Below the pieces are notes generated by a model. That model saw only the letters and a program-made list of their open reading frames with translations, was not told where the DNA came from and ran no database searches. A stretch of 64,000 bases of DNA from Escherichia phage EC.W14-3. The stretch's first letter is position 1, and the number at the start of each line of letters is the position of its first letter. The position numbers and the translations under genes are program-made. This document shows positions 5,037-62,207 of the stretch, piece after piece. Where the stretch lies: the sequence record PP496998.1. The stretch is one strand, 5' to 3'.

Positions 5037-5045
5037 TAATGTATA
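5037..5045 (+). promoter_or_regulatory. TAATGTATA promoter-like motif
   Basis: exact 9-mer 37 nt upstream of ATG 5082, gene orientation. Confidence 0.4.
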
Positions 5046-47439: not shown

Positions 47440-48590
47440 TCTGAATAAGAGTATAAAGGGCACATCATAAGACCTACCCGTAAAGGCCACCTCACATTAA
47501 CACCCGTGAGAATACCTGTATTCATTTTCGTAGTCTTCTTCAGAGAAGCTACCGTATTCATCTTCTGTCATACATCCCTCTGATAAAGTTAAGACATAAA
47601 GGGGACGTCATCTTTGATGACTACTTCACATTAAGGCACCCCCATAAAGGCCATGTCACGTTAAGGCCTATCCATCCATGTGCTGTGTTTAAGCTTACCA
47701 CATTTACTACATCTCCAAGTGGACTTATAAAGGGTGTGAACTCTTTCATCCCCGTAAGCTTTGCGTATCCGATAGTACTCATGATCACATTTGAATTGCT
47801 TAATGATTAACTTAATTTTCCACATAAGTTCTCTTTCAACCTTATATATAAGAGTTTAAAATACAGATTTATAAAAAATAAAGATGTATATATCTGTTTA
47901 AAATTCTGATTTGACCGAGTGGGGCTAGCCGCTCGCCGCGCGTTTCCTAAAAGGGGGGAGTCCTCATTTAAAAAAGGGTTATTGGCAATGCCTTTACACC
48001 TCCTTCCACGTTCCAACCTTTCCCCGTGCCTACTCCCCGTTATTCTTTCCCCGTGTATACCATCCTATTCATTAGCTACCCGTTTATTTAGTACCCCTTT
48101 AGAGAGTGAGAGAAAGGCTATACTCTGATAAGGCACAATCATAACAGGTCTAATAATACCGTATTGTTACCGTTCAGCTCCCCATAGTTTGAATGTAAAT
48201 AGTTTCAATAGTAATGATTATGAGTGCAATAATGATGTATGTATTAATTAAGTGGATGATTGTAATTCTTTTAATAATTGCTTTTATTCTTTTCTTTTTC
48301 AGCGTGCCTTTGTGAGCGTAGCGAACGTCTTTGATGTTTGAGTTATACAATTATTTAAGTGGTATATTATTACCGCACTATCTTGCTATGTTTCCCCGTG
48401 GTCTACCCTGCGGTTGTATGCTCCCCGTGTCCTGGTCTGTTGGTCTGCTACCCGTAGCACCAGCGTAACACCCGTAGGATTAGTGTTATAAAGTAACAAT
48501 AGCTAGTAAGCTGATTCTCTGAGTATGGAAGGTTTAGTAAATTAAATTCCTTTAGTTTTCAGTGAGTTATAAGAAAGTTAGAAAATAAAT
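47440..48590. repeat. repeat-rich AT-rich intergenic region between divergent modules
   Basis: at least 10 copies of GC-rich core CCCGT (CCCCGTG at 48022, 48049, 48394, 48423; ACCCGTAG at 48449, 48470); imperfect 20-nt direct repeat TAAAGGCCAC.TCAC.TTAA at 47483 and 47646. Confidence 0.5.
47661..47825 (-). CDS. possible small zinc-finger protein (54 aa)
   Basis: MWKIKLIIKQFKCDHE...WRCSKCGK; lies in repeat-rich intergenic region; not in track. Confidence 0.2.
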   Translation of the reverse strand: MWKIKLIIKQFKCDHEYYRIRKAYGDERVHTLYKSTWRCSKCGKLKHSTWMDRP

Positions 48591-48592
48591 GG

Positions 48593-48621
48593 TTGACAGG
48601 TTTTTCCTTTATTATATAGTT
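48593..48621 (+). promoter_or_regulatory. sigma-70-type promoter
   Basis: TTGACA, 16-nt spacer, TATAGT; about 45 nt upstream of ATG 48665. Confidence 0.55.
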
Positions 48622-50646: not shown

Positions 50647-50846
50647 ATGAGGTGATTGTATGCCTTACTCCCTTTTAGCTCGTTGTGGTGCGTTACAGGC
50701 CGCTTATTATTGCTTTACAAGCCGTTTTCTATGATGTATCACGCGCCCCCGCTCTTTTACCTCCTGATTTCTTCCGGTGTCCTACCGACAATAAAATAAA
50801 TTCCTTTATAAAACAGTGAGATGAAAAATAATTTGAAAAAAGGGTA

Positions 50847-50874
50847 TTGACATGATTTTCCTTTATAGTAATAT
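50847..50874 (+). promoter_or_regulatory. strong sigma-70 promoter P1 with A-rich UP-like element
   Basis: aaaaaagggtaTTGACA, 16-nt spacer, TAATAT. Confidence 0.65.
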
Positions 50875-51052: not shown

Positions 51053-51081
51053 TTGACACCGAAAACAGCCTGATTCATAAT
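51053..51081 (+). promoter_or_regulatory. strong sigma-70 promoter P2
   Basis: aaaaagagtaTTGACA, 17-nt spacer, CATAAT. Confidence 0.7.
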
Positions 51082-55251: not shown

Positions 55252-55450
55252 TCACTAGTGCCAGATTTGACAAACTAAATTCCTTTATAAACCAACCACT
55301 TAGTAAATTTATTGAAAAAGATGGTAGTATTCTGGGACTATGGGTAATGCTCTGTATATAGACCCTTTGAAAATTTCTTAGAAAATAAGTTTACTAAATA
55401 TAACTTACTTAAATAATATTACTTTTAATCTCTGATAAAGGGTAAATAAT

Positions 55451-55747
55451 ATGACTTTAGAAGTATATAAATTCCTTTTTGTAAGCTGTTTAACTATCAG
55501 CGTTCTAGGATTTATTGTTCTAAGAAACAAAGCAGCAAGCTGGGAAAGAATGTATAAATCCCTAGTCCGAGTGGATGAGATGTATAATGAGAAGGTTAAA
55601 GTAACACTCAACGATCTTATTATGCAAGTTGAGGACAGAAACAAGCGTCTTCAGAACCTCAATCACGAAGTGTTACGCCTTGCTCGTGCTAATGAAGACT
55701 TGCGAATAGCTATTGCTAAGCAGCAGGAGATTAACAGTGATAATTGA
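55451..55747 (+). CDS. membrane-anchored coiled-coil protein
   Basis: N-terminal TM FLFVSCLTISVLGFIVL then heptad-like charged region. Confidence 0.45.
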   Translation: MTLEVYKFLFVSCLTISVLGFIVLRNKAASWERMYKSLVRVDEMYNEKVKVTLNDLIMQVEDRNKRLQNLNHEVLRLARANEDLRIAIAKQQEINSDN

Positions 55748-55748
55748 T

Positions 55749-55973
55749 ATGAACAACGCCCCAAAGGTTTTAACTCTTGGGGATTTAGAATCAGGTGATG
55801 TATTCCAGTTCCCTCTGGATGGGGAGAATTACTATATGTTATCTAGTCAGAAGTTTGGGACAACAGACAAGAGAAGTTATATCAATCTTTCCTGTGGCGT
55901 TATTGCAACGGATGAAGGTAATACAGTCATCAAGAAGGTCAGCAATGCTCGGCTTACCAATAAGGTGGATTAA
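55749..55973 (+). CDS. small protein, paralog family C
   Basis: LTLGDLESGDVF...YYM...NLSCG motif set; internal ATG of track ORF 55713-55973. Confidence 0.45.
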   Translation: MNNAPKVLTLGDLESGDVFQFPLDGENYYMLSSQKFGTTDKRSYINLSCGVIATDEGNTVIKKVSNARLTNKVD

Positions 55974-55975
55974 CA

Positions 55976-56212
55976 GTGAAAGTTAATATTAAATCCGATC
56001 GTACAATGCTTCGCTTAAACAACATGAAGCCGGGCGTTCTATTTGAGCGTAAAGAATCCCTTTACATTAGAACCGACACATTGTACGCAGACAATTATGT
56101 CAACTGTGTTGATGTGGTAACTGGAAAGCTCATTCCTTTTAAACGGGATGAAGTCTGCCAAGTACGCAGCGATCTCCACATAACTAACATAGAGGCTAAA
56201 GATGAAGATTGA
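55976..56212 (+). CDS. small protein, paralog family C
   Basis: GTG start; MKPGVLF...LYIRTD...NCVDVVTG. Confidence 0.4.
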   Translation: MKVNIKSDRTMLRLNNMKPGVLFERKESLYIRTDTLYADNYVNCVDVVTGKLIPFKRDEVCQVRSDLHITNIEAKDED

Positions 56213-56459
56213 TTTGAAGGTAAATGAACCATCTTTGTGTGTTGGTGATCTCAAACTTGGAGATGTATTCCAAATCAGGGAAACACGAGCAGATTTCTAC
56301 ATGGTTGTTCAGCTATTTACCTCACAGATTGAAGAGACCAAGCCTTCTGATGGGGGTTGTGTCGTCCTTAGTCTGACAAATAAGCAAGTCCTTAAGCTTA
56401 GCTCGAAAAGCAAGGTTGTTCTTCTTCATGATGTTGTTATTACTAACAAGGGCAAGTAG
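56202..56459 (+). CDS. small protein, paralog family C
   Basis: VGDLKLGDVFQ...FYMV...GGCVVLSLTN. Confidence 0.45.
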   Translation: MKIDLKVNEPSLCVGDLKLGDVFQIRETRADFYMVVQLFTSQIEETKPSDGGCVVLSLTNKQVLKLSSKSKVVLLHDVVITNKGK

Positions 56460-56678
56460 ATGGAAATTAAAGTAGTTGATTATCCTAAATATGCAAATGC
56501 AGAAGATGTTAAAGGTGGTGATGTTTTCTCTTACGACAGACGTTTCTGGCTGATGTTAGAAGATAAAACTCCCGATGGTTTATGTAAGGCCGCCAATCTG
56601 AACAGCGGTTCTGTTGAAGTCTTCGGTCTATCAACCACTGTTATGCCACGCCCTGATCTGTGTTTATCCCAAAAGTAA
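56460..56678 (+). CDS. small protein, paralog family C
   Basis: VKGGDVFS...FWLML...CKAANLNSG. Confidence 0.45.
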   Translation: MEIKVVDYPKYANAEDVKGGDVFSYDRRFWLMLEDKTPDGLCKAANLNSGSVEVFGLSTTVMPRPDLCLSQK

Positions 56679-56684
56679 CATCGA

Positions 56685-56800
56685 CTTATAGCCCTTGTGT
56701 TTATCAGAGGGCTATGTGAGGGTGTTCCTCATTAACTTATTAATTCAGGCATATGCCACACCGCTAGGGAGAGCTTGCTCGAACATCCGGTGTTAGACTA
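56685..56800 (+). repeat. conserved non-coding element, copy 1 (hairpin plus GCTAGGGAGAG block)
   Basis: TATAGCCCT...AGGGCTATGTGAG hairpin, GCTAGGGAGAG, AACATCCG shared with 61827-61950. Confidence 0.5.
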
Positions 56801-57036
56801 AAACCTGTTCAATTTCGGTAGACTTTCCACTACGTAGGGGTACGTATTGGTTTGGGATTCAGGAGATCTCCTAGGGGTAGGAGGTCTTCACCAGTTGGGA
56901 TAAGAGATAGCTCTAGAACCTGAACTCTTAGGCAGAGAGGGTCGGCAATGAGTACGAGGTCAGAATTAGCCTCCTGACTAGGGCTATCCCTTATATCAAC
57001 TGGCAATAATGCCTCCACTAATAAAGAGAGAACGTT

Positions 57037-57177
57037 ATGAAGAAGTCAACCAAGAGTATGAACCGTCCTGAGCGTATGGATGCAGTAGCAAATGGTGCAC
57101 TGAAGATCGAGTCTGCCATGCTGCGTCTGATGGGTAACATCCGTAAGCGTCAAGGTGGTTGGGTTTACAATAACTGA
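57037..57177 (+). CDS. small basic protein (46 aa), probably highly expressed
   Basis: host-optimal codons; MKKSTKSMNRPER...; not in track (short). Confidence 0.35.
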   Translation: MKKSTKSMNRPERMDAVANGALKIESAMLRLMGNIRKRQGGWVYNN

Positions 57178-57299
57178 TTTAATAAAAGGCTGCCTAGAAA
57201 TAGGTGGCCTTTGTTGTTTTAATTAAGGGTCAACTCTTACTTAAACTAACAACGGGTGTATGGTATTGACAGGCATCGGCACGGAACTTGTTACCAACA

Positions 57300-57370
57300 A
57301 GGTTGGCGAATCAAGACCTCTGTGAAGCTCCGAAGAAATCAAGGCAGGTTCGACTCCTGCTCCCCGACCA
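57300..57370 (+). pseudogene. tRNA-like 3' fragment (T-arm plus acceptor-like end)
   Basis: GCAGG-TTCGACT-CCTGC T-arm then TCCCCGA-CCA; no matching 5' acceptor strand found. Confidence 0.25.
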
Positions 57371-57390
57371 AATCAGCAAGAGGTGCTTAT

Positions 57391-57744
57391 ATGAGAAGCA
57401 TGGTTAAAGATTGGGTAACTAAATCAGGTCTTCGTGCTGTGATTATGCACATGAACGACTCCCACTTTTGTGGATATGTAGAGCTACCAGACAGCTTAAA
57501 ACATAAAAACTTCACCGGATATAACGGGAATGAAGAAGTTTGTTATGTAAGTGTTCATGGTGGTGTCACATGGCAAGATACCCTTGAAGAGATGGATGGT
57601 TTAGATACAATCGGATTTGATTGTGCCCATGCAGGTGATAAGACACGGTTCAACCCTAACGGGGTTCCAAGAACAGAAACGTTCTGCATCAACGAATGCG
57701 AACAAATGGCTGAACAACTAAGAGATCTCGAATCAAATGTCTAA
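57391..57744 (+). CDS. hypothetical protein
   Basis: internal ATG after GAGG RBS; track N-terminal extension would span the tRNA-like element. Confidence 0.45.
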   Translation: MRSMVKDWVTKSGLRAVIMHMNDSHFCGYVELPDSLKHKNFTGYNGNEEVCYVSVHGGVTWQDTLEEMDGLDTIGFDCAHAGDKTRFNPNGVPRTETFCINECEQMAEQLRDLESNV

Positions 57745-57913
57745 GCAAACAATCAAACATACGCAAGCTGGTTACTCTTATATCAACTCTCCTTGTTGTG
57801 GTGCTCGTGTGAATCTGGTTAAGGAAGAGGTTCGTATCGTTCAGCGTGGCGCTACTGTTGTTCGTTCATGCTGTGTCTGTGGTAATGACATTTTTATCAA
57901 AGGTAAAGTATGA
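57737..57913 (+). CDS. small Cys-rich protein (58 aa)
   Basis: SPCCGARV...SCCVCGND; overlapping starts both sides; not in track. Confidence 0.35.
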   Translation: MSKQTIKHTQAGYSYINSPCCGARVNLVKEEVRIVQRGATVVRSCCVCGNDIFIKGKV

Positions 57914-58161
57914 AAAACTTCCAAGCTGCACCAATAACTAAAGTGATCGAAGTTGACGGTGTAATGATGACTGTTCCTCTGAACACTCGTTACATTGCAA
58001 TTGACAAGATGGGCTATGTATGGGCTTGGAAGATCAAGCCTAGTTATAACGCACTGTTTGATGAGTTTGTTTGTACTGGTACTTACAGTCCTACATTCTT
58101 GGGTTTATTTGGAGAGTTTGATGGTAAGCATAAAATCATCACTCTCCCTGCTTGTGCTTGA
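57910..58161 (+). CDS. hypothetical protein
   Basis: 83 aa ORF, ATGA overlap with upstream stop. Confidence 0.45.
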   Translation: MKNFQAAPITKVIEVDGVMMTVPLNTRYIAIDKMGYVWAWKIKPSYNALFDEFVCTGTYSPTFLGLFGEFDGKHKIITLPACA

Positions 58162-58168
58162 GGTTATT

Positions 58169-58333
58169 ATGTTCAAGTGGTTTAAACGTTTCTTCCATCT
58201 CCATGATTGGGAGACAATAAAAGAAATTCGTTTACACATATATAATGAGATTGGTCAAATAGAAGACACAGGTACTCGTTATATACTTCGATGTAAAACA
58301 TGTGGTCATATCACCAAGCGAGATATGATCTAA
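58169..58333 (+). CDS. small zinc-ribbon protein (54 aa)
   Basis: RCKTCGH; RBS GAGG; C-terminal part of track ORF 57995-58333. Confidence 0.4.
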   Translation: MFKWFKRFFHLHDWETIKEIRLHIYNEIGQIEDTGTRYILRCKTCGHITKRDMI

Positions 58334-58341
58334 ATAATTCT

Positions 58342-58417
58342 GCGCTCTTAGCTCAATGGATAGAGCAGTAGCCTTCTAAGCTATTGGTTACAGGTTCGAG
58401 TCCTGTAGGGCGCACCA
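58342..58417 (+). tRNA. tRNA-Arg (anticodon UCU)
   Basis: 76 nt cloverleaf: 7-bp acceptor GCGCTCT/AGGGCGC, D-arm GCTC-AATGGATA-GAGC, anticodon loop CTTCTAA, T-arm ACAGG-TTCGAGT-CCTGT, encoded CCA. Confidence 0.9.
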
Positions 58418-58423
58418 CATTTA

Positions 58424-58538
58424 GGGCTAGTATGGGTGCGGCACCAGAGTTAGTGTATCCCTGTTGAGGCAAGTGCTTTTATAACAGTGGGAATTACTTT
58501 CTTAGTGAGCTTCTGGTTCGATTCCAGATAGTCCACCA
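58424..58538 (+). other. tRNA-like element with consensus T-arm, non-canonical overall
   Basis: TCTGG-TTCGATT-CCAGA T-arm plus TAGTCCACCA end; 5' acceptor partner imperfect; about 105 nt. Confidence 0.25.
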
Positions 58539-58557
58539 AATCTAATAGGAGGTAATT

Positions 58558-58857
58558 ATGAGTTGGGGTGGTGTAATATCCTTAATCTGTATCTTCCTTG
58601 TCTGTATAGCCCTTACAGGCTGCGTACAGAGTCGTCCTGATGGATGGTGTGCAGTAGCAGTGGAAGGTGTTTGTGTTTCTCGCTGGCATAAAGGTAAGAA
58701 GGTTCCTTCTGGTGAAATTGATATGCGCTGGAACGGAGCAACCTGCTCTAATGCTAACCCTTCTATCAACGAAGAGAAATCTACACCGGATAATGTTGTG
58801 ATTGATACAGCGTTGTGGTGTGGTGGCTCTGTAACAACAACCGGTAAGGAGTGGTAA
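58558..58857 (+). CDS. lipoprotein (possible superinfection-exclusion / receptor-masking protein)
   Basis: AGGAGG RBS; signal peptide with canonical lipobox LTGC (MSWGGVISLICIFLVCIALTGC); Cys-rich mature region. Confidence 0.55.
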   Translation: MSWGGVISLICIFLVCIALTGCVQSRPDGWCAVAVEGVCVSRWHKGKKVPSGEIDMRWNGATCSNANPSINEEKSTPDNVVIDTALWCGGSVTTTGKEW

Positions 58858-58858
58858 T

Positions 58859-59107
58859 ATGACAGCTCATTATTGGAATACAAAGAAGCTTCTTGAGGAG
58901 ATGGCTGGGGGTAGTAGAGTACAGCTAATCTCTATGCTTCGAATGGATGCTCGCTCTTTACGCTTTCAAGTGAAGATTGGTAACTTCAGCGATGGTCTTT
59001 ATTATACCTTGAAGGAAAGAATTAAGAAAACTCACTTCATCATGTACGGAATCAAACCGAGAACGTACGTTAACTACATGTATTGGGATACATGCTACGA
59101 TAGTTGA
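58859..59107 (+). CDS. hypothetical protein
   Basis: 82 aa ORF. Confidence 0.45.
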   Translation: MTAHYWNTKKLLEEMAGGSRVQLISMLRMDARSLRFQVKIGNFSDGLYYTLKERIKKTHFIMYGIKPRTYVNYMYWDTCYDS

Positions 59108-59114
59108 GGCTATT

Positions 59115-59336
59115 ATGAAATTAGATTCTAAACAATCACTTAAAACTGTTGAACTATCCACCCTTCCAAATGGAAGTATTTTTGGTCATGATAAACACTT
59201 CTGGATTAAAACAGACTACTTGAACGATGGGTATATCACCTGTGTCAATCTTTGGAATGGCTCAGTGGATGGCTACCGCCCTAGTGCAAAAGTAGTCCCT
59301 CAGCCTGATGCAAAAGCTATAGGTTTGGTCTACTAA
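59115..59336 (+). CDS. small protein, paralog family C
   Basis: LPNGSIFG...FWIKTD...CVNLWNG. Confidence 0.45.
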   Translation: MKLDSKQSLKTVELSTLPNGSIFGHDKHFWIKTDYLNDGYITCVNLWNGSVDGYRPSAKVVPQPDAKAIGLVY

Positions 59337-59345
59337 GGAGTTCAT

Positions 59346-59519
59346 ATGAGCTGTTATGGTGGAGGTGAAGTTTATGATGACGATGATATGGAATCTAATG
59401 GGGAATGCCCTGATTGCGGGTGTGAGACGTTTGATGGTGTATCAGTATATCCTGCCTGTAGTTACTCACCAGTGATCTGTAAAACATGTGGTGATCAGCC
59501 ATGTGACCAATCTTGTTAA
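59346..59519 (+). CDS. small Cys-rich protein (57 aa)
   Basis: AGGAG RBS; CPDCGC...CKTCGDQPCDQSC; not in track. Confidence 0.35.
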   Translation: MSCYGGGEVYDDDDMESNGECPDCGCETFDGVSVYPACSYSPVICKTCGDQPCDQSC

Positions 59520-59528
59520 GAGGTTAAT

Positions 59529-59786
59529 ATGGACGGAGAAATGGTTTCATATATAGCCATGACCTACTTGGTAGGTTGGTGGGTTGCAGTGTTGGTGGTG
59601 AAGTGGTGCTTCAAGAGAGGGAAGTTTAAAACTTTCCTACATACTCCTTGGGGGAACCCTGACGAAACTGCAATGTGGGTTGTGATCTTCTTCTGGCCTG
59701 TTATCTTATTATTCTTTATCATCTTCCCAATCCTACTACTATTTGACACTGTATTATGTAGGCTTACTAATTTTATAGTAAAGTAA
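59529..59786 (+). CDS. small membrane protein (2 TM)
   Basis: two hydrophobic segments (VGWWVAVLVV; VVIFFWPVILLFFIIFPILLLF). Confidence 0.5.
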   Translation: MDGEMVSYIAMTYLVGWWVAVLVVKWCFKRGKFKTFLHTPWGNPDETAMWVVIFFWPVILLFFIIFPILLLFDTVLCRLTNFIVK

Positions 59787-59790
59787 TATC

Positions 59791-60060
59791 GTGAAGGACT
59801 CTTACGAGAGTCCTTTGAGATAGGACTTCAGATCTCCTATCAAACTAACATTCATGTAACTAGCCCATAAGGGCGTTACCCTTTAATAACCCAGCCCACT
59901 AAGGGGGCGGGAGTTTAGTGCTGGATGAGCATAACGCTTATTCCTACAAAGGCAACCGATTGTTAGATCTTACATGCAATATTAATTAATAGGATAAGGG
60001 AGGATTCGTCCCCTCCCCCTATTTTATTGAATCTTTATCTAAGCAAGTCTTATATAAACA
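59791..60060 (+). other. hairpin-rich intergenic region
   Basis: perfect 8-bp hairpin aggactct-TACG-agagtcct, adjacent gatagga...tcctatc hairpin, further GC-rich stems; no ORF. Confidence 0.35.
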
Positions 60061-60076
60061 TTTAATCGGAGGGTAT

Positions 60077-60298
60077 ATGACAAAATGTGAAACACTTATC
60101 AAACATAGTCCGTATCCTTTCAGAAGGGTAACTCTTAGTCAGATAGAGGAAGAAGCCAAAAAGCACTACACTAATTGGGAGGATATGAACTTCCTTCAGT
60201 GGAATAGCGCTCATGGAGATCTGTCTTCAGACATGATAAGGCATTCGCATTATCTGATAATTGATGGTGTGTTAGTTAAAAGTCGACATGGGTGGTAA
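60077..60298 (+). CDS. hypothetical protein
   Basis: 73 aa; RBS GGAGGG. Confidence 0.4.
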   Translation: MTKCETLIKHSPYPFRRVTLSQIEEEAKKHYTNWEDMNFLQWNSAHGDLSSDMIRHSHYLIIDGVLVKSRHGW

Positions 60299-60611
60299 AA
60301 TGAAAGCTCGAAGAACTATATGGACTCCGATGCAGATTGAAAACCTTCGGAGACTAATCAAAGAGTACTCTGTCCAAGAGGTTGCTCAGATTATGAATGT
60401 AACGGAGAATGCAGTTAATACAGCTTGCACTAAGTTCGGTATATCAAGAGCTGTAATCCGAGTTAAGTGGTCTAAAGAAGAAGATCAGTTCCTTATCCGT
60501 AATGCTGGGTTCATGTCTATTCAGAGAATGGCTGACATGCTCGGTAGAAGTTATGCTGCTGTACAGAACAGGGCATGTATGCACCTTAACATTAGCCTCA
60601 AACTTAAATAG
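60288..60611 (+). CDS. tandem helix-turn-helix protein (putative transcriptional regulator)
   Basis: two HTH-like repeats YSVQEVAQIMNVTENAVNTA and MSIQRMADMLGRSYAAVQNRA. Confidence 0.5.
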   Translation: MGGKMKARRTIWTPMQIENLRRLIKEYSVQEVAQIMNVTENAVNTACTKFGISRAVIRVKWSKEEDQFLIRNAGFMSIQRMADMLGRSYAAVQNRACMHLNISLKLK

Positions 60612-60619
60612 GAATCAAT

Positions 60620-60865
60620 ATGAAGATCATCCCAAAGAAAAAGGATAATACGGTACGATTGGAAACGATCATTCCCGGAAACCCCTTTGTGGTACAGCAC
60701 GGAAGTGTCTCTCCTCAATATTATATGAGGGTTGAAAATGCTTCTGGTAATATCCGTATAGCCAGTGGCTGGGTTCCTGTGGTAAACCTTTCCACAGGTG
60801 TACTATCTGTTAAAGGTCTTGATGATCAGGTAGAAATGATTCGTATGTCAGTGGTTCAGGAGTAA
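60620..60865 (+). CDS. small protein, paralog family C
   Basis: IIPGNPFV...YYMRV...VVNLSTG. Confidence 0.45.
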   Translation: MKIIPKKKDNTVRLETIIPGNPFVVQHGSVSPQYYMRVENASGNIRIASGWVPVVNLSTGVLSVKGLDDQVEMIRMSVVQE

Positions 60866-60867
60866 TT

Positions 60868-61116
60868 ATGGGCACTATTCATATTAAAGTTAAGAGCAAA
60901 GAGGAAACAGTCCTCCGTGTTAAAGATCTAAATATGTCAGATGTGTTCACTCTCCAAGAGTGCCATCTTCAAAAGATTTATATGCTTACAGCTAAGAGCA
61001 GGGGCTGTCAACCTGCTGGAGCTGTTAACTTAGGCACTGGAGAACTGCGTGTCATCTCTGGTGATATGGTTGTTGGTGAGAAGTTTAGTAAGGCTGAAAT
61101 TATCTTAACTCCATAG
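60868..61116 (+). CDS. small protein, paralog family C
   Basis: LNMSDVFT...IYML...GAVNLGTG. Confidence 0.45.
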   Translation: MGTIHIKVKSKEETVLRVKDLNMSDVFTLQECHLQKIYMLTAKSRGCQPAGAVNLGTGELRVISGDMVVGEKFSKAEIILTP

Positions 61117-61124
61117 GAAAACAA

Positions 61125-61241
61125 ATGAGACGTAAAGCATATTCTTATGACGATATGATTAACCAGAAAGGCTTTGGTCAACGGCAGCCTGACGGTTCAA
61201 TTATCTGGTTCGTAAACGGACAGAAAAAGGTAGCTAAATAA
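61125..61241 (+). CDS. possible 38-aa peptide
   Basis: short ORF between paralog genes; weak evidence. Confidence 0.2.
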   Translation: MRRKAYSYDDMINQKGFGQRQPDGSIIWFVNGQKKVAK

Positions 61242-61257
61242 GCCCTCTTCTCTCCCC

Positions 61258-61283
61258 CTTTTAGTACTATGACGCCTCTCTGT
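61258..61283 (+). promoter_or_regulatory. conserved intergenic motif TTTTAGTACTATGACGCCTCTCTGT (copy 2)
   Basis: copy of 54644-54670 element; followed by hairpin GCGTAGGGAATTCCCTCTACGC. Confidence 0.35.
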
Positions 61284-61347
61284 GGGCGGCCCAATTTGCG
61301 TAGGGAATTCCCTCTACGCAGCCATGACTTTTTAAGGAATTTCCCCT

Positions 61348-61581
61348 ATGTCTAAAGTAAGCGCAATCGATGCAATCCGTCAACCGTTCCAGTTCCAATC
61401 CAAATCAACCCAAACCTTCAGTGAGCCTAAGCAAATTCGCTTGGGTGGCACAGAGAAGACTGTGTTTGATCTGGCTAAAAACAAGAGCGTTACCGTAGTT
61501 GATGGTGGCACTCTGGTTAACGTTTCCCATCGTATCCGCACTGGCAAAACTGCCAAAGATCGTGCTAAGAAAGGTGAGTGA
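61348..61581 (+). CDS. small basic protein, probably highly expressed
   Basis: 77 aa; host-optimal codons; RBS AAGGAA. Confidence 0.5.
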   Translation: MSKVSAIDAIRQPFQFQSKSTQTFSEPKQIRLGGTEKTVFDLAKNKSVTVVDGGTLVNVSHRIRTGKTAKDRAKKGE

Positions 61582-61823
61582 TGAAAATAGGGAAACCAGC
61601 TAAGGATGTTCTAGCGAAGATTGGTGATATCTCTATTGGGGAAGTTTTCTCAGCTGAGCACTTTTCAAGTTACTACATGAGAATCCCTGACACTAAAGTT
61701 GAGGGTTGCATCATCCCTGCCAACGCAGTTAACCTGAACACAGGACACCTGTCTGCATTCAAACCTGATTCACAGGTTACTGAAATCAAAGATGCCTACC
61801 TCGCCTTTGGTGGGGATAAGTAG
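61578..61823 (+). CDS. small protein, paralog family C
   Basis: ISIGEVFS...YYMRI...NAVNLNTG. Confidence 0.45.
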   Translation: MMKIGKPAKDVLAKIGDISIGEVFSAEHFSSYYMRIPDTKVEGCIIPANAVNLNTGHLSAFKPDSQVTEIKDAYLAFGGDK

Positions 61824-61826
61824 AGT

Positions 61827-61950
61827 AACATCTATAGCCTTCTTCTGAGGGCTATGTGAGTTATTCTGACTCAACTAACCTAATCTTAATATATTTCCCG
61901 TATGGGGCCGATGCTAGGGAGAGGAGTGTTCCTCAAACATCCGTCGGATA
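61827..61950 (+). repeat. conserved non-coding element, copy 2
   Basis: ATAGCC...GAGGGCTATGTGAG hairpin, GCTAGGGAGAG and AACATCCG blocks shared with 56685-56800. Confidence 0.5.
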
Positions 61951-62054
61951 GATATTTTAAGAGCAGGTTATCCACAGATATTGGGTAATATCTTTTTGGA
62001 TTTAAAGCTTGGCTCTTTTCGGAGAGTCCTTTTTTAAATTCAATGAGAGGAAAT

Positions 62055-62207
62055 ATGTCTAAATTAGATTTAAAACTGCTAGCAGCAGCGGTAGTGATTT
62101 GTGCACTAGCACTGGTAACGCAGAGAACATCTGGATTTATTCAGTGTTTCTTTTCTGGGCAATCCACTTATCAGTGGGTTATTGACGAGTGTAAACAACA
62201 GGAGTAA
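62055..62207 (+). CDS. small hydrophobic peptide (50 aa)
   Basis: RBS GAGAGG; LKLLAAAVVICALALV hydrophobic stretch; not in track. Confidence 0.35.
   Translation: MSKLDLKLLAAAVVICALALVTQRTSGFIQCFFSGQSTYQWVIDECKQQE

Follow-up and report, generated by a model that had tools for sequence, protein, structure and literature searches.

The window analysed here, a 64,000-nt stretch of Escherichia phage EC.W14-3 (PP496998.1), comes from a phiEco32-like Kuravirus. Two ORFs in it end at 56678 and 61823, and one related non-coding element lies directly 3' of each. These elements, copies A and B of an RNA motif, each begin at the stop codon of the last ORF in an early gene array (Table 1), and the GTAAC leader at the start of each overlaps the stop codon or abuts it. 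The 81-aa ORF before B and the one before A are paralogues, which raises the possibility of a joint duplication of gene and element. The initial annotation had noticed related elements after two array-terminal genes, and this was borne out. There are exactly two occurrences of the pattern GCTAGGGNGAG-N(2-16)-CTCNAACATCCG in the window and none in 100 shuffles, and a B-only covariance model matches A over its full length (46.2 bits, E ~1e-8), with no other match in the window besides B. Global identity between A and B is 60.6%, compared with about 50% (maximum 55%) in shuffles. The elements are longer than the 120 nt or so given in that annotation (56685-56800 and 61827-61950), running from 56675 to 56817 and from 61825 to 61976. 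The 'GTTCCTCA' block that it had placed at equivalent positions is the 3' arm of P1b in A (56727-56730 region) and the 3' arm of P4 in B (61930-61934 region), and the resemblance of A and B in this block is coincidental.

Table 1. Features of the motif copies and their surroundings (window positions)
Feature	Position	Strand	Remarks
Last ORF before copy A	56460-56678	+	72 aa, phrog_6570
Copy A	56675-56817	+	108.6 bits, E 1.7e-24 (R2 covariance model)
A leader GTAACATCGACTT	56675-56687	+	TAA stop of upstream ORF lies within leader
A P1	56688-56695 / 56708-56715	+	
A P1b	56718-56721 / 56727-56730	+	
A TAAC	56733-56736	+	
A P2	56748-56750 / 56755-56757	+	
A P3	56758-56763 / 56788-56793	+	
A loop CTAGGGA	56764-56770	+	
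A P4	56771-56780	+	
A loop GAACATC	56781-56787	+	
A TAGA tail, then possible P5 3' strand GTT(C)AAT	56807-56813	+	
Hairpin H1 after A	56827-56850	+	loop UAGGGGUA
Hairpin H2 after A	56862-56889	+	loop UAGGGGUA, same as H1
46-aa basic ORF, phi32_112 homologue	57037-57177	+	phrog_13305
Intrinsic terminator ending operon with copy A	57185-57212	+	
Region C (probable relative)	59783-60017	+	relative part 59783-59948; terminator 59998-60017
Last ORF before copy B	61578-61823	+	81 aa, phrog_12612, weaker phrog_6570 match
Copy B	61825-61976	+	covariance model, alignment, fold
B leader	61825-61833	+	stop TAG of upstream ORF at 61821-61823
B P1	61834-61841 / 61848-61855	+	
B P1b	61858-61861 / 61869-61872	+	
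B P5a TAACCT/AGGTTA	61876-61881 / 61965-61970	+	
B P5b TCTTAA/TTAAGA	61884-61889 / 61957-61962	+	
B P2	61897-61899 / 61904-61906	+	
B P3	61908-61913 / 61942-61947	+	
B loop CTAGGGA	61914-61920	+	
B P4	61921-61934	+	
B loop AAACATC	61935-61941	+	
B tail TCCACA	61971-61976	+	
Weak A/U hairpin after B	61976-61993	+	
Intrinsic terminator closing B region	62011-62028	+	stem; U-run to ~62038

A and B are paralogous copies of a structured RNA domain of about 145-155 nt (the motif spans 143-162 nt), whose helices are P1, P1b, P2, P3, P4 and the closing helix P5. In order, both copies share P1 (ATAGCCyt/arGGCTAT), GT, P1b (GAGN/NCTC), TAAC, P2 (SSC-rTAT-GSS), a P3 of 6 bp, the CTAGGGm loop, P4 (GAG../..CTC), the rAACATC loop and wTAGA. 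The invariant unpaired bases, CUAGGGm and rAACAUC in the RNA, form the internal loop of the P3-P4 arm. The minimum-energy fold of B alone gives P1, P5, P2, P3 and P4 (z = -5.3). P5 is tentative in copy A and has a bulge or mismatch in some phages.

Pairing statistics were obtained from 24 distinct sequences with 26 pairs and 619 pair cells. Almost all cells (99.5%) are paired, whereas slid controls gave 33-45%, and both sides have changed in 16 of the 26 pairs. The covariation score of 0.435 (0.134 in shuffles) was reached by none of 500 shuffles, and compensatory base changes occur in five helices; the B-only alignment gave the same outcome and added the long-range helix P5. About 30 cells are G.U in the plus-strand RNA and would read A.C on the opposite strand, where the model score comes from the P1 palindrome only. 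Identity of B between the window phage and SU7 is 88%, and with 7-11 it is 72%, compared with 55-62% for flanking ORF DNA and about 50% for shuffles; the neighbouring protein gp92 has an identity of just 34-53%. The covariation analysis that the initial annotation had proposed, together with the strand-specific G.U pairs and a conservation above that of flanking coding DNA, strongly supports its suggestion that the conserved non-coding sequence represents a functional RNA. A coding sequence was rejected as a candidate.

It is highly improbable that the conservation reflects a signal in the DNA, such as a DnaA box or origin, a promoter, a protein-binding palindrome or a recombination site. A perfect DnaA-box 9-mer, TTATCCACA, lies at 61968-61976; all B copies from Kuravirus, Suseptimavirus and the 7-11 group retain it. 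B also contains a sigma70-like CTGACT-N18-TATATT at 61866-61895. However, the 9-mer is missing from A and from the L045 (contig described below) and Gamaleyavirus copies (TTATCTCAG or TTATCACAG there), in B its first bases belong to the 3' strand of helix P5a, and it occurs 3 times in the window versus 0.67 expected. The region holds 15 promoter-like matches, fewer than the mean of 19.1 in shuffles. Double-stranded DNA sites would not be expected to show compensatory changes, G.U pairs or loops of variable length. A DnaA box or origin was rejected because the single TTATNCACA 9-mer is found in B only, neither clustered nor in all family members. The promoter consensus of phiEco32 gp36 is tAATGTAtA, 6-8 bp upstream of the start, and the sigma factor of phage 7-11 recognises a different promoter (PMC8948821). 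The proposal of a promoter for the phage sigma factor is not supported, since this consensus has no match with up to one mismatch in or near A and B, and the motif is kept in 7-11 despite the different sigma promoter. A recombination hotspot or duplication relic, also proposed earlier, fails to explain why pairing is preserved while the sequence changes, or why the motif is spread over unrelated families.

Covariance models found full-length copies in Kuravirus (2), Suseptimavirus (2) and the 7-11 group (1). The B-only model found another full-length copy (51.5 bits) in L045, an unrelated phage-like contig of uncultured origin, and after model retraining a copy was found in the N4-like Gamaleyavirus (58 bits, E ~1e-12), where it is kept in 56 records. 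The carriers are three unrelated families of E. coli and Salmonella phages and the uncultured contig; in GAP52, a relative of 7-11, the model search did not find the motif. Further copies in relatives, which the initial annotation had suggested looking for, therefore exist, and a likeness confined to the hairpin is ruled out by the six helices and invariant loops kept in several phage groups. Each copy shares the strand of the genes, follows immediately on a stop codon and has a terminator-like hairpin 3' of it. The genes 3' of the motif vary (46-aa peptide, membrane peptide, endolysin, tRNA region), the Gamaleyavirus copy being located upstream of the tRNA region. Because L045 had been binned with a Flavobacterium genome, a host outside the enterobacteria is possible for it. 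Kuravirus, Suseptimavirus and the 7-11 group share an unvarying P1 stem, ATAGCC/GGCTAT, with a loop of 6 to 12 nt; the sequence of P1 is wholly different in L045, Gamaleyavirus and region C.

Region C is probably a third, divergent relative of A and B. Its leader, AAGTAATATCG, overlaps the stop of an 85-aa ORF, and its 5' half resembles A and B in a P1-like GGACTCT/AGAGTCC, a P1b-like GATAGGA/TCCTATC, AAACTAAC and the hairpin GCCC-ataa-GGGC, whereas its 3' half is unlike both. The fold of region C has z = -4.6, and the region is kept with covariation in 7-11; its R2 model score (14.2 bits, E 0.2) is not significant alone. The Gamaleyavirus copy combines a C-like 5' half with a B-like 3' half. 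The tRNA-Arg gene of the window phage lies between A and region C.

Terminators follow A at 57185, B at 62011 and region C at 59998, and the 7-11 copy precedes an annotated terminator. The B terminator and its flanks are kept in Salmonella phage 7-11, whose record annotates the terminator there. The 46-aa ORF after A (57037-57177) and the small ORFs after B match the earlier description; the ORF after B has its annotated start at 62055 rather than 62043. H1 and H2 lie within the 358-nt non-coding gap 56679-57036, neither strand of which holds a conserved ORF. By eye, their stems vary between Kuravirus and Suseptimavirus and their loops are unchanged.

With respect to Rfam 15 and the papers on phiEco32 and 7-11 transcription, the motif is a previously undescribed RNA element. 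At the gathering threshold, the tRNA-Arg was the sole Rfam match in the whole window; permissive scans of A, B, C, L045 and the Gamaleyavirus locus left the motif unmatched, with unrelated matches far below the gathering score. The transcription papers do not mention the motif, and the literature searched yielded no expression or RNA-end reports for motif-carrying phages.

From these sequence comparisons, we tentatively favour the idea that the motif is a self-contained RNA module at operon 3' ends, most plausibly a stable RNA that binds a factor. Sigma70-driven early operons would carry it as their untranslated 3' end; it sets in at the stop codon of the last ORF, and an intrinsic terminator comes after it. 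The RNA folds into two 5' hairpins, P1 and P1b, and a junction closed by P5, which bears the small hairpin P2 and the long P3-P4 arm with its invariant internal loop. The motif may then form the stable 3'-terminal RNA of the operon, presumably accumulating as a discrete RNA, and may bind a conserved cellular or phage factor, rather than particular mRNAs, via the invariant unpaired bases. Such a module would be horizontally exchangeable between phages. The identical invariant loops across phage families and the possible non-enterobacterial host of L045 suggest that the partner is broadly conserved.

The motif ends every early operon examined, from the stop codon on, and might therefore protect or process the 3' end and so set the half-life of early polycistronic mRNAs: fold and terminator would block 3' exonucleases, or P1 at the stop codon would serve for cleavage or binding. 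The invariance of P1 despite its variable loop suggests sequence-specific recognition of the hairpin. This explanation is nevertheless improbable. A 3' end is normally protected by a terminator hairpin without further help, protection by itself would not call for six helices and 14 invariant unpaired bases, the longest continuous helix (P1, 8 bp) is too short for RNase III, and P1 is entirely different in some carriers. A T7-type RNase III site, which has a hairpin of about 20 bp or more with an internal loop, was rejected: P3 and P4 make 11 bp around a 7/7 loop.

The motif resembles orphan riboswitch candidates in having the signature by which such candidates are nominated: a junction of several covarying helices, invariant nucleotides in junction and loops, and a terminator and then an ORF behind it. 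In Kuravirus and 7-11, B lies upstream of a cluster of amidoligase, glutamine amidotransferase and ATP-grasp genes. We consider it very unlikely, however, that the motif is a small-molecule aptamer governing formation of the downstream terminator. By eye, the 3' part of the motif and the terminator have no alternative pairing that is conserved across lineages; AAGAGC/GCUCUU complementarity is seen in Kuravirus B but not in 7-11, pSal-SNUABM-01 or L042. The immediately downstream genes are unrelated among A, B and the 7-11, Gamaleyavirus and L045 copies, and GAP52 has the same enzyme cluster without the motif. Unlike riboswitch candidates in Rfam, the motif shows no conserved expression-platform switch by eye and no consistent downstream gene.

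Stable RNAs at comparable places differ from the motif. In enterobacteria, small RNAs derived from 3'UTRs share the intrinsic terminator of the mRNA, start near the stop codon, use short seed pairing with Hfq or ProQ, and are specific to the host lineage. The motif is likewise a structured RNA near the stop codon that shares the intrinsic terminator of the mRNA, but its invariant bases lie in an internal loop and are identical across phage families. Species 1 and 2 (rnaC and rnaD) of the virulent coliphage T4 are stable RNAs of 119-139 nt beside tRNA genes, annotated without function, which the motif matches neither in sequence nor in structure; the motif is also found near tRNAs (the Gamaleyavirus tRNA region and tRNA-Arg in the window phage). 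With the R2 model and filters off, the best match in T4 68000-76000 had 9 bits (E 0.46) and did not lie at rnaC or rnaD.

Some observations stand against a factor-binding RNA. GAP52 lacks the motif although it is related to 7-11. Copy A is separated from its terminator by about 220 nt of further structure and an ORF, so A is not simply a motif plus terminator. In B of Kuravirus and 7-11 and in the L045 copy, the motif is followed by a terminator and at once by an RBS and ORF, leaving too little space for a promoter. This last arrangement is the classic layout of a cis-acting read-through leader and favours the main rival, which we regard as possible but rather unlikely: by analogy with HK022 put and lambda nut, the motif would be a new class of cis-acting RNA controlling read-through at the following terminator. 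Acting by itself or together with an early phage protein, the nascent motif would carry polymerase past the terminator and so allow delayed expression of the promoter-less phiEco32 genes 90 to 69, including the regulator gp79, and of 7-11 genes 126 to 70. Consistent with this, the equivalent site in GAP52 lacks both the motif and a U-run terminator, and no gp36 promoter consensus occurs from B to window position 5037 across the genome wrap; mapped gp36 promoters lie only before genes 6, 13, 26, 40, 58 and 68 (PMC8948821).

A precedent is HK022, in which two paralogous put RNAs, putL and putR, lie upstream of early terminators; put RNAs are about 70 nt with two stem-loops, lie near promoters, share sequence and function in the nascent RNA itself (PMC9378689). 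As in HK022, two paralogous structured RNAs are found per genome in early operons, upstream of intrinsic terminators. Compared by published description, however, the motif is twice the size of put (~150 nt), has a different architecture of six helices, lies at operon ends after the stop codon and is also found in N4-like phages; its antitermination activity is putative. In lambda, nutR lies between cro and tR1, and the genes beyond depend on read-through. The motif is similarly placed between the last early ORF and the first terminator but is far larger than lambda nut (boxA and boxB, with N protein). By eye, alignments of the motif family contain no conserved boxA (CGCUCUUA-like) or 15-nt boxB hairpin; the sole GCUCUUUU is the B terminator stem and is absent from A and L045. 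Further points speak against read-through control. The Gamaleyavirus copies presumably sit in the N4 middle-gene cluster, which we take to be transcribed by the phage's T7-like RNA polymerase, and a mechanism tied to the zinc-binding domain of host beta', to which nascent put RNA binds and thereby suppresses pausing and termination with no need of protein factors, would not carry over. The DNA after the terminators could hold promoters (by eye, a -35-like TTGACA near 57267 for A and TTGAAT near 60028 for region C), so read-through would not be obligatory there. The B terminator and flanks are themselves strongly conserved, as though part of the RNA product.

If the motif does control read-through, it would be the 'yet to be defined' antitermination strategy of phage 7-11 and would account for expression of phiEco32 genes 90-69, which lack promoters and include the gene for the transcription switch protein gp79. 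It would then be an antitermination element larger than HK022 put, unrelated to put, and exchanged among coliphage families.

The 6-kb stretch around the two copies of the motif, A and B, is 100% identical to Escherichia phage EC.W8-1 (PQ030848.1), a phiEco32-like Kuravirus, whose record positions minus 7244 are the window positions. Both copies are set in the early cluster of small plus-strand ORFs, which is transcribed with sigma70. The initial annotation had described a related element of about 120 nt after each of two paralog arrays, that is, after the small ORFs preceding A (55451-56678) and B (60077-61823). Related non-coding sequence was indeed confirmed 3' of both array ends, where the ORFs stop at 56678 and 61823, but the proposed length was too short (table). 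The composite pattern GCTAGGGNGAG-N(2-16)-CTCNAACATCCG matched at exactly two places in the window and in none of 100 shuffles, and global identity between A and B was 60.6%, with shuffles at about 50%. The block GTTCCTCA, which had been paired between the copies, belongs to different helices in A and B and hence is not homologous. The likeness nevertheless goes beyond a single hairpin, since A and B share a multi-helix plan that is kept across phages.

The array ORFs and their counterparts in the comparison phages SU7 and 7-11 fall in overlapping PHROG families (phrog_6570, 12612, 7431 and 7832) of 70-85-aa proteins of unknown function. A protein link to the motif through phrog_6570 was rejected: the ORFs upstream of A, B and the 7-11 copy match this family, those of phiEco32 (gp91) and of the contig L045 do not, and the matches were treated as incidental because the family fills the entire early region. 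A link to gp88 or gp89 was also rejected, the ORFs near the L045 copy being unrelated to either.

The common plan of the motif was derived by comparing copies from many phages.

Elements of the motif and coordinates of its copies and neighbours
Feature	Location	Sequence or composition	Remark
Copy A	window 56675-56817 (+)
Copy B	window 61825-61976 (+)
Leader		GTAAC...	holds or abuts stop codon of upstream ORF
P1		ATAGCCyt/arGGCTAT, 8 bp	GU next
P1b		GAGN/NCUC	conserved UAAC after
P2		3 bp	loop rUAU
P3		6 bp	encloses invariant internal loop (CUAGGGm on 5' side, rAACAUC on 3' side)
P4		hairpin GAG../..CUC	inside P3 internal loop
wUAGA	3' part of motif		after P3/P4 arm
P5 (copy B)		UAACCU/AGGUUA + UCUUAA/UUAAGA	long-range helix closing junction
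Two adjacent hairpins	window 56827-56889	identical 8-nt loops UAGGGGUA	downstream of A
Region C	window 59787-60076	closed by terminator 59998-60017	third conserved non-coding gap, 3' of 85-aa ORF
Phage E20 (OP745616.1), first features 3' of ORF E20_56	1267-1413; ~1478-1690	motif copy; C-like element	terminator-like hairpin between
Phage E20 (OP745616.1), later features 3' of ORF E20_56	2202-2277; 2848-2920	tRNA-Sec-like match; odd tRNA	then tRNA-Ile

The P3 pairs read ACACCG/CGGUGU in A copies of Kuravirus, UCACCG/CGGUGA in those of Suseptimavirus, CCGAUG/CGUCGG in B, UCGGUG/CGCCGA in the 7-11 group, AUAGCG/CGCUAU in L045 and CUGACG/CGUCAG in Gamaleyavirus. Helix sequences vary and the predicted pairing is preserved. 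Because MAFFT put P1b and P4 of A and B out of register, pairs were counted in an anchor-based, N-padded hand alignment of 24 distinct sequences. In this alignment, whose anchoring on the conserved loops leans slightly towards structure, 99.5% of 619 cells were paired and both-sided change occurred in 16 of 26 pairs; the covariation score was 0.435 against 0.134 in shuffles (0 of 500 reached the observed value), and pairing fell to 33-45% when partners were slid. A MAFFT alignment of 20 B copies gave the same covariation picture. Because of its G.U pairs, the fold is specific to the plus strand, on which the genes also lie. The B core of EC.W8-1 is 88% identical to that of SU7 and 72% to that of 7-11; the flanking ORF DNA is 55-62% identical in these comparisons, near the shuffles' 50%, and protein gp92 just 34-53%. 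In the gap after A, no conserved ORF was found on either strand, and coding sequence there was rejected because open frames shift in length and position between phages on both strands. The element is very probably a genuine, selected, structured RNA; at about 150 nt and strongly covarying, it is the best-conserved non-coding sequence common to phiEco32-like and 7-11-like phages.

That the conserved sequence is instead a signal at the DNA level is highly improbable. The initial annotation had considered a promoter for the phage sigma factor (gp36), whose consensus proved absent. A DnaA box was rejected, as the perfect 9-mer TTATCCACA (61968-61976) is B-specific and missing from other family members; it does not vary among B copies, those of the 7-11 group included, and overlaps the 3' strand of P5, and helix P5a accounts for its first bases only, the CCACA tail being invariant too. 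A sigma70-like match (CTGACT-N18-TATATT) lies within B at 61866-61895 and, if real, would place a transcript start near P2; in the region, promoter-like matches are no commoner than in shuffles. Elsewhere in the window, a 48-75-nt element, AAATTCCTTTA...TTGACA..., is repeated at 48538-48612, 50792-50866 and 55272-55319; the repeats resemble a set of early sigma70 promoters that have an upstream block in common. Another pair of sequences (TTGACA..CATAAT), at 51053 and 51356, shows 86% identity. At both gathering and permissive thresholds, Rfam searches of the window, A, B, region C, L045 and the Gamaleyavirus locus found no family for the motif. Neither tRNA nor tmRNA explains it (the sole match is a tRNA-Arg at 58342-58417), and T4 rnaC and rnaD have no homology to it.

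The first covariance model (R1), built from B copies only, matched A (46.2 bits), the Suseptimavirus A copy (57.7 bits) and the copy in L045 (51.5 bits), a phage-like small-ORF array binned with a Flavobacterium genome; on the window it found nothing besides the motif copies. The retrained model (R2) matched the N4-like Gamaleyavirus phage E20 at full length, directly 3' of a stop codon (58 bits, E ~1e-12). This copy is 94-100% conserved across 56 Gamaleyavirus records, and its internal loop has shrunk to CUA/AUC, GGG being paired with CCC. The motif has spread to N4-like phages. A single copy is present in phage 7-11; GAP52 gave no match, nor did the EC.W8-1 and 7-11 genomes outside the copies described. 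When viral, metagenome and genome collections were scanned for the exact pattern, no lineages beyond these came up; matches in L008, L009/L018/L031/L036/L044, L017, L020, L026, L043, L053, L059 and L060 were due to chance, lacking P2 and having a broken P3 and E >1. A weak R2 match (22.8 bits, E ~4e-4 to 3e-3) lies at 2339-2467 of IMGVR_UViG_2706796794, a viral contig related to L045 via a 446-aa protein; the match may represent a diverged member of the family whose internal loop is altered (CUACGCA).

Region C begins with the same leader as A and B, followed by P1-, P1b- and P2-like hairpins, and its 3' half is different. It is structured (z = -4.6) and conserved in Kuravirus, Suseptimavirus and phage 7-11, in the last with compensatory changes; alone it scores just 14.2 bits with R2. 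Its part at ~59883-60029 is 74-84% identical to unannotated DNA of Gamaleyavirus phages directly 3' of their motif copy. The Gamaleyavirus motif itself combines a C-like 5' half with a B-like 3' half, which probably unites A, B and C in one modular family. In E20, the 1.6 kb of DNA at 1267-2930, 3' of ORF E20_56, is unannotated.

Downstream of B there are a weak hairpin, a strong terminator (62011-62035), an RBS and an annotated start (62055), with no space for a promoter between terminator and gene. The 7-11 copy has the same downstream layout, as does the L045 copy with a weaker hairpin. Downstream of A there are two hairpins, a variable segment, a 46-aa ORF and a terminator at 57185. The stems of the two hairpins differ between Kuravirus and Suseptimavirus, and their loop recalls CUAGGG in the motif's internal loop. 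The 46-aa ORF is phi32_112 in Kuravirus; in phage 7-11, 710 nt without annotated gene (L049 42134-42846, record 82134-82844) lie directly downstream of its homologue in the transcription direction, and the motif models found no match there.

Two of the functions weighed fit best. Our tentative preference is that the motif is a self-contained RNA module that would form the stable 3' end of an operon and bind a conserved factor, because it comes with a conserved terminator of its own, has been passed among three families of phages that differ in polymerase and downstream genes, and keeps one invariant loop in members of different families. Simple protection or processing of the 3' end is unlikely. 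Control of terminator read-through in cis is somewhat less plausible than the factor-binding module. The Gamaleyavirus context, which we take to be that of a phage T7-like polymerase, speaks against it, as do the lack of the motif in GAP52 and possible promoters 3' of the terminators that follow A and C. However, the genes 3' of B have no promoter, gp36 promoters have been mapped only ahead of genes 6, 13, 26, 40, 58 and 68 (PMC8948821), an undefined antitermination strategy must exist according to the 7-11 authors, and HK022 put RNAs provide a precedent (PMC9378689). A riboswitch is very unlikely, weakened by our finding no conserved terminator/anti-terminator alternative pairing.

The motif is undescribed in Rfam 15 and in the phiEco32 and 7-11 transcription literature covered, and a literature search for Kuravirus RNA-seq or non-coding RNA returned nothing relevant. 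It constitutes a new RNA family, of a general kind that is already familiar. To our knowledge, few phage-encoded structured RNAs have been described. Those that are understood (put, nut, RNA anti-CRISPRs and pseudo-ToxI) each uncovered a new mode of host handling. In phiEco32 the motif lies at the early/middle boundary, in a region without mapped promoter, and in 7-11 within the long early transcript whose antitermination mechanism was left open by its authors. This location makes it a concrete candidate answer to the antitermination question. Should it prove instead to be a stable RNA that binds a factor, it would indicate a host factor targeted via RNA by several virulent coliphage families.
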